From NCBI RefSeq assembly GCF_003334255.1, contig NZ_QOWU01000037.1: a DNA stretch of 51,502 nucleotides; one strand, 5' to 3'. The stretch comes from Escherichia coli (GTDB taxonomy: Bacteria > Pseudomonadota > Gammaproteobacteria > Enterobacterales > Enterobacteriaceae). Positions 46,457-47,192 of this stretch are shown here, piece by piece. Below the pieces are notes generated by a model. The model did no database searches. It had not been told where the DNA came from and saw only the letters and a program-made list of their open reading frames with translations. Position 1 is the first letter of the stretch. Each line of letters opens with the position of its first letter. Both the position numbers and the translations under genes were made by a program.

Positions 46457-47014
46457 TTATCCTTCGATAAAAGCCATCCCTGTAAATGTCCGTCGCGGGT
46501 TGCCACGTTCAATCTGGTGATGGAACATTCGCCGCTGCGATTTCAGCGCCGCGCTATTTTCCTGTTGCTGTTGCTCCAGCTTCCAGGCAATCAGCAATCG
46601 TGCCAGCCGCTTGTTAGCATGCTGACTACGCTCTGACTGAACCTTCACGCTAATACCGGATGCCAAATGCGTGGCGCGTACCGCCGAGTCGGTTTTATTG
46701 ACATGTTGACCGCCCGGCCCCGACGAACGCAGCGTCTCATAACGGATTGCATCCGATTGTTCCTGCTCATCAGCGGTAAAACGCCCAATGCCCAGAAACC
46801 AGTTTTTGCGCCCATGATGAGGCCGATACGGACTCGGACAAATCCACTGAATAGTGCCACACCAGCTTTCGCTTAATGCCCATGCGTTATCGCCATCGAG
46901 AGAAACCAGCGCCGAACGCAGTGTGTCAGAGTAGCGGCCCGTTTCTGTTTCCAGCACCGTTACCGCGACGTCTTGCCGGGTAAAAACGACCAACAGAGAA
47001 GAACGCTGCGCCAA
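46457..47014 (-). pseudogene. prfH: prfH' release-factor homolog, N-terminally disrupted
   Basis: Contains GGQ motif ([17 protein letters not shown]); N-terminal ~30 aa replaced by [12 protein letters not shown]; overlaps rtcB' fragment frame. Confidence 0.65.
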
Positions 47015-47192
47015 TCGGGTAGCCGCGTCCGGGGTGTAAATCTGGCATCCCCACTACGCGCTGCATGTTGGGTAAATTTGCCGTGGTGTGTAATTGTTGG
47101 ATCGCTAAACTCTCGATCCACAGGTCATCAGATGCGATGGTAAATACCGCATCGGATAAGGGACGAATATATTTGCCCATGTACCATTCCAT
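46926..47192 (-). pseudogene. RtcB-family ligase N-terminal fragment (ykfJ-like)
   Basis: 88-aa ORF with RtcB-like motif [15 protein letters not shown]; truncated. Confidence 0.6.

Follow-up and report, generated by a model that had tools for sequence, protein, structure and literature searches.

A 1,027-bp deletion between imperfect octamer repeats in the rtcB2-prfH pseudogene pair of Escherichia coli K-12

Introduction

[quoted passage not shown] Once PrfH has freed the peptide from a ribosome damaged in its decoding centre, RtcB2 religates the 16S rRNA (Tian et al. 2022, PMC9304027), and in E. coli ATCC 25922 the operon protects against colicin E3 (Maviza et al. 2022, PMC9223846). Biochemical and structural work has established what the intact module does.

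Orthologues of prfH, together with the conserved gene that lies upstream of them, were recognised by Baranov et al. 2006 (PMC1586002). In K-12 strains MG1655 and W3110, and in O157:H7, a deletion of approximately 1,000 nt was reported to have taken the C-terminal portion of the upstream gene along with the N-terminus of RFH, and it was argued that any product would be without a central beta-strand of domain 2 (PMC1586002). The K-12 copy of the module is inactive (Tian et al. 2022, PMC9304027; Maviza et al. 2022, PMC9223846); BW25113 is sensitive to colicin E3, and knockout of the rtcB2'/prfH' remnants changes nothing (PMC9223846). The rtcB2'-prfH' pseudogene pair is already known and annotated, and has become textbook K-12 annotation. 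What is added here is only the exact breakpoints of the deletion (1,027 bp, at an octamer repeat), the frequency of the allele, and the secondary decay of the locus.

Results

The window analysed here is the whole stretch of 51,502 nucleotides of E. coli DNA (contig NZ_QOWU01000037.1), and all coordinates refer to it unless another sequence is named. A 2,061-nt query across the region of interest is 100% identical to derivatives of E. coli K-12, e.g. DH5a. Between pepD (44943-46400, plus strand) and yafP (47498-47950, minus strand), a mechanical ORF list gives two minus-strand ORFs that lie in different frames and overlap by 89 nt: one of 185 aa with a TTG start (46457-47014) and one of 88 aa with an ATG start (46926-47192). 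The first contains a prfH' remnant at 46457-46973, which comprises codons ~32-204 of 204 and ends with the stop codon at 46457-46459. The second contains an rtcB2' remnant, placed at 46974-47180 by alignment to intact rtcB2, which comprises codons 1-69 of 379. As in intact loci, rtcB2' is directly upstream of prfH' on the same strand.

Both remnants are partial pseudogenes in RefSeq. In a DH5a-type record, prfH is labelled 'incomplete; missing N-terminus' over the equivalent of window 46457-46963, and in the same record an 'RtcB family protein' is labelled 'incomplete; missing C-terminus' over the equivalent of window 46974-47180; the 88-aa ORF carries four extra codons ahead of this annotated rtcB2' ATG at 47180. 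We take ykfJ' to be the K-12 annotation name for the rtcB2' remnant. The pair described here is the same locus, altered by the same event, as the K-12 prfH'/ykfJ' pair of Baranov et al. (PMC1586002), from which it does not differ. It is followed directly by yafP, yafO (47960-48358), yafN (48361-48654), and dinB (48706-49770), all on the minus strand, in keeping with an earlier sequence-only reading that had described a relic of a ribosome-repair module next to yafNO and dinB.

On its other side, the pair converges with pepD, and 56 nt separate the prfH' and pepD stop codons. Inside this gap is a GC-rich inverted repeat (ctgccggatggcg ... cgccttccggcag, window 46411-46446) that resembles a shared bidirectional terminator. 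The repeat was missed by a simple terminator scan, probably because it breaks the T-run rule; across 46350-47560, the scan gave two terminator-like matches, both inside prfH' on the opposite strand, and no more than in shuffled sequences.

To which families the two remnants belong was assessed with profile searches. The 185-aa ORF matches Pfam RF-1 (PF00472) with an E value of 1.6e-24 and scores 277.3 bits against NCBIfam TIGR03072 (release_prfH), over the curated cut-off of 166.65; the intact PrfH of one comparison strain, L002, scores 328.8 bits. The match covers only profile positions 31-200 of 200, and thus falls short of full length. The alignment of prfH' with the intact L002 prfH is gapless at 98.4% identity, and the L002 protein is itself nearly identical to chain 8, the PrfH chain, of PDB 7SA4. 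Residues 1-12 of the 185-aa ORF have no counterpart in intact PrfH (MILLQLSSAQGPEECCLAVKKALDRLIKEAA...). The RF-1/GGQ domain is common to prfH' and the other GGQ peptidyl-tRNA hydrolases, namely RF1/RF2 and ArfB, but PrfH is the best NCBIfam match of prfH' and the sole family for which it scores above the cut-off. For prfB the score is 92 against a family cut-off of 370, the prfA match is weaker too, and for ArfB the score is 34 against a cut-off of 100, with the match lying over the GGQ region. The GGQ motif itself, which the sequence-only reading had reported as retained, is indeed intact in K-12 at 46706-46714 on the minus strand (GGCGGTCAA, PrfH codons 120-122). Its last residue, Q122, is the catalytic glutamine of PrfH that was mutated by Tian et al. 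2022 (PMC9304027).

With an E value of 5e-5, the 88-aa ORF matches the Pfam RtcB model over the first 35 of its 426 positions. NF007153, the prfH-associated 'RNA ligase RtcB family protein', is matched by the 69-codon core of the ORF at positions 1-69 of 379, with an E value of 5.7e-31. The corresponding score of 107.8 bits is under the membership cut-off of 407, and the score against TIGR03073, 100.7 bits, is likewise under its cut-off of 271.8. A DNA comparison spanning 198 nt shows rtcB2' to be 95-100% identical to intact rtcB2 at its 5' end. The catalytic core of RtcB2 is absent, everything from codon 70 onward being gone, including His294, the residue altered in the RtcB2 H294N construct used by Tian et al. 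2022 (PMC9304027). Thus, prfH' and rtcB2' are members of the PrfH and RtcB2 families by descent, but incomplete ones, and constitute a pseudogene pair.

These searches also bear on the outcome that would have refuted the sequence-only reading, namely an intact prfH with an alternative start and an upstream ORF unrelated to RtcB. Nothing speaks for this except the mechanical 185-aa ORF with its TTG start, and we regard it as refuted: profile positions 1-30 of TIGR03072 are absent, the first 12 residues of the ORF are unmatched in intact PrfH, and the upstream ORF is co-linear with codons 1-69 of intact rtcB2, as judged both by DNA identity and by the match to NF007153.

In other E. coli, the intact operon occupies the same position between pepD and yafP and consists of an rtcB2 gene of 1,140 nt (379 aa) and a prfH gene of 615 nt (204 aa), which overlap by 4 nt such that the rtcB2 stop and the prfH start form ATGA. 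To locate the breakpoints, the K-12 pepD-yafP interval was compared by BLAST with three independent intact loci. All three comparisons gave two co-linear blocks whose offsets differ by exactly 1,027 nt and whose ends overlap by 7-9 nt. In the intact loci, two imperfect 8-nt direct repeats lie 1,027 bp apart: ACCCGGCA, at nt 200-207 of rtcB2 (codons Y67-A69), and ACCCGACA, at nt 91-98 of prfH (codons 31-33). K-12 keeps a single copy, ACCCGGCA, at 46974-46981 on the minus strand (plus strand TGCCGGGT), and it is at this octamer that the homologous parts of rtcB2' and prfH' abut. The position, orientation, and neighbours of the pair are those of the intact RtcB2-PrfH module (ATCC 25922, CFT073, and others; PDB 7SA4), with the kept parts 95-100% identical in DNA and the GGQ motif preserved; unlike the intact module, K-12 is without rtcB2 codons 70-379 (the 3' 82% of the gene), the ATGA overlap that provides translational coupling, and prfH codons 1-30 with the native start. 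The suggestion, made from the sequence alone, that an internal deletion had removed most of rtcB and the 5' end of prfH, and that alignment to intact rtcB2-prfH loci would map it, is therefore borne out by a single deletion of 1,027 bp.

The reverse polarity, in which the K-12 form is ancestral and the other strains carry an insertion, was rejected, since in those strains both reading frames run on through the additional 1,027 nt, which also fill out both family profiles.

As 1,027 is not divisible by three, rtcB2' and prfH' are joined out of frame. The rtcB2' frame reads through into prfH DNA for 15 codons and a stop (46926-46973, minus strand), and these codons form the C-terminal 15 residues of the 88-aa ORF. 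The prfH' frame extends upstream into rtcB2 DNA (46982-47014, minus strand) as far as the first possible start, the TTG, and this extension supplies residues 1-12 of the 185-aa ORF. At one of its ends, each ORF is thus the other gene read out of frame, and the 89-nt overlap is an artefact of ORF calling rather than a pair of overlapping genes. Several details of the sequence-only reading change accordingly. The two ORFs do overlap in different frames, but as a by-product of ORF calling at the junction; the upstream ORF does hold the N-terminus of an RtcB-like ligase, but only 69 of its 88 residues, rather than all of them, are RtcB; and prfH has lost its native start and codons 1-30, but the N-terminus said to replace them is a mechanical extension of the ORF into rtcB2 DNA, with no replacement domain.

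Taken together, the region is almost certainly the rtcB2-prfH operon of E. coli K-12, inactivated by one 1,027-bp deletion between imperfect 8-nt direct repeats. Its probable origin is slippage during replication, or illegitimate recombination, at the octamer repeat. The deletion has left a 69-codon RtcB2 N-terminal stub, which continues out of frame into prfH DNA, and a prfH fragment with no start codon, which keeps the GGQ domain without the first 30 residues. Neither remnant is expected to be functional.

A truncated PrfH', comprising the GGQ domain and most of the decoding-like domain, could in principle be translated from a substitute GTG or TTG codon and work by itself as a rescue factor or peptidyl-tRNA hydrolase, comparable to the GGQ domain of ArfB. 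That prfH' is still a working gene in this sense is, we think, very improbable. Its 173 homologous codons are open, its GGQ motif is intact, it scores over the TIGR03072 cut-off, and it has a weak ArfB-family match over the GGQ region; yet the deletion took both its native start and its ATGA coupling to rtcB2, and also, as argued by Baranov et al. (PMC1586002), a central beta-strand of domain 2. Moreover, colicin E3 sensitivity is unchanged by knockout of the remnants in BW25113 (PMC9223846), and in approximately 6 of 39 evenly sampled genomes both the GGQ motif and the frame have since been lost, as described below. A consensus scan of 46350-47560 found no sigma-70-like promoter, which also counts against a working gene, although such a scan is uninformative about expression.

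Nothing contradicts the reading of the locus as an inactivated operon, but sequence variation within prfH is in slight tension with it. The K-12 prfH' frame, open for 173 codons, has one private change relative to nine intact alleles, and that change is synonymous. In pairwise comparisons, which do not separate the classes, pN/pS is 0.10 among deletion alleles vs 0.086 among intact genes; that the deletion alleles are no higher would suit a gene still at work. These values indicate that most of the diversity among deletion alleles arose under constraint, either before the deletion or in intact donor genes. Equally low ratios in the two classes mean that the decay is young or that diversity has been imported by recombination, and either is compatible with residual expression. 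When only class-private changes are considered, the deletion alleles have 7 synonymous and 8 non-synonymous changes and the intact alleles 33 and 15, a difference in the direction of relaxed constraint that is not significant (Fisher p = 0.14 to 0.26). This lean towards non-synonymous change (7:8 vs 33:15, not significant at p = 0.14) runs against a working prfH'.

The frequency of the inactivated operon was determined in 5,426 complete E. coli genomes, with presence defined as query coverage of at least 80%. A 200-nt query centred on the junction was present in 2,691/5,426 genomes, and a 1,021-nt query from the interior of the deleted segment in 2,675/5,426. The two classes are of almost the same size and come close to being complementary. 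All seven deletion alleles that were retrieved (K-12, the O157 strain L007, and five others) break at the same octamer.

Some of these alleles have decayed further. A second deletion, of 169 bp between GCAT tetramers, is found in L005 (positions 758-1167 of that locus), L006, L009, and L010, and corresponds approximately to window 46619-46791; it takes prfH codons ~95-151, including the GGQ motif, and shifts the frame. The sole estimate of its frequency comes from 39 evenly spaced genomes, approximately 6 of which show a matching shorter span. A 200-nt junction query is unsuited to counting it, as pieces less than 600 nt apart are joined and both intact and deleted alleles reach 100% coverage. 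This 169-bp loss looks like the continuing decay of a dead gene. Some of the remnants that carry it are labelled 'hypothetical protein, frameshifted' by PGAP.

Insertions of the IS1A family were observed on top of the deletion allele in two genomes, H1 (NZ_CP166722.1) and H10 (NZ_CM147700.1), within the region homologous to window 45900-47960. They are another sign that the locus tolerates disruption.

Whether the 1,027-bp deletion arose once or repeatedly was examined using SNP tables of 16 alleles, seven with the deletion and nine intact. The junction octamer occurs in three forms: ACCCGGCA in K-12, L006, and L009; ATCCGGCA in L005 and L010; and ACCCGACA in L007 (O157) and L008. These forms fit crossovers on either side of the mismatch together with both parental T/C variants, as would be expected if slippage at the octamer had produced the same deletion on several occasions. 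If there was one event, a single later G/A or T/C substitution explains the variants. L009 has a different haplotype, with four SNPs within 13 nt of the junction, and the divergence of 2-4% among the deletion alleles is as large as that between them and the intact alleles, with no site fixed between the classes. K-12 carries the deletion and HS the intact operon, both strains presumably belonging to phylogroup A. The equally low pN/pS of deletion and intact alleles is a further hint of repeated origin. Against these points for recurrence, the seven deletion alleles are almost uniform over the first ~60 nt right of the junction, and this haplotype occurs in none of the nine intact ones. The alleles that share the 169-bp deletion still vary in their left flanks, which shows that recombination occurs near the junction and can explain the mosaic. 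We therefore favour one deletion event, followed by recombination and point change, and consider recurrence unlikely in this sample of only 16 alleles; the matter concerns the history of the locus and not its identity.

Several polymorphisms flank the pair. Directly upstream of the rtcB2' start is a 127-bp imperfect palindrome (window 47194-47320, with arms at 47194-47218 and 47296-47320), which holds both ERIC-PCR primer sequences with one mismatch each, at 47236-47257 (minus strand) and 47258-47279 (plus strand). The primer sequences are those of Versalovic et al. 1991. Since both are present, the palindrome is an ERIC/IRU repeat, which probably explains why a 2-kb query had a median of 6 match sites per genome. 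Different E. coli alleles of the intergenic region carry the element at full length, carry it with ~65 nt missing from its interior, or lack it.

Beyond yafP, yafN-yafO (window 47960-48654) is absent in L002, L005, L010, L011, L012, L014, and L015, where yafP overlaps dinB by 4 nt; yafO is frameshifted in L003 and has an internal stop in L016. Absent from many E. coli, yafN-yafO thus constitutes a presence/absence polymorphism inside the dinB operon, and it is found with deleted and intact rtcB2-prfH loci alike. On the pepD side, four strains with an intact operon, L004 (positions 2010-2817) and L013, L014, and L016 (positions 1-717 in each), have two extra genes between pepD and prfH, which encode a small hypothetical protein and a 'metal-dependent hydrolase'. 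PrfH in these strains ends in ...FVAV rather than ...FIEG, which places the boundary of the insertion in the last prfH codons.

Discussion

The deletion might be more than a K-12 relic, namely a near 50:50 presence/absence polymorphism across E. coli that is perhaps held by a trade-off, in which protection from colicin E3-type ribotoxins is set against the cost of an rRNA ligase and a release factor. Repeated slippage at the ACCCGRCA octamer would perhaps also regenerate it, as hinted at by the mosaic flanks and the three forms of the junction. We put this account forward as speculation and hold it to be rather doubtful.

For laboratory work, the K-12 strains are natural RtcB2-PrfH nulls, and hence colicin E3-sensitive and clean hosts for complementation, and the exact breakpoints provide a simple genotyping marker. 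For the species, the deletion is present in approximately half of the sequenced E. coli genomes, some of which show further decay, and this poses the small population-genetic question of why a ribosome-repair defence should be lost so often.
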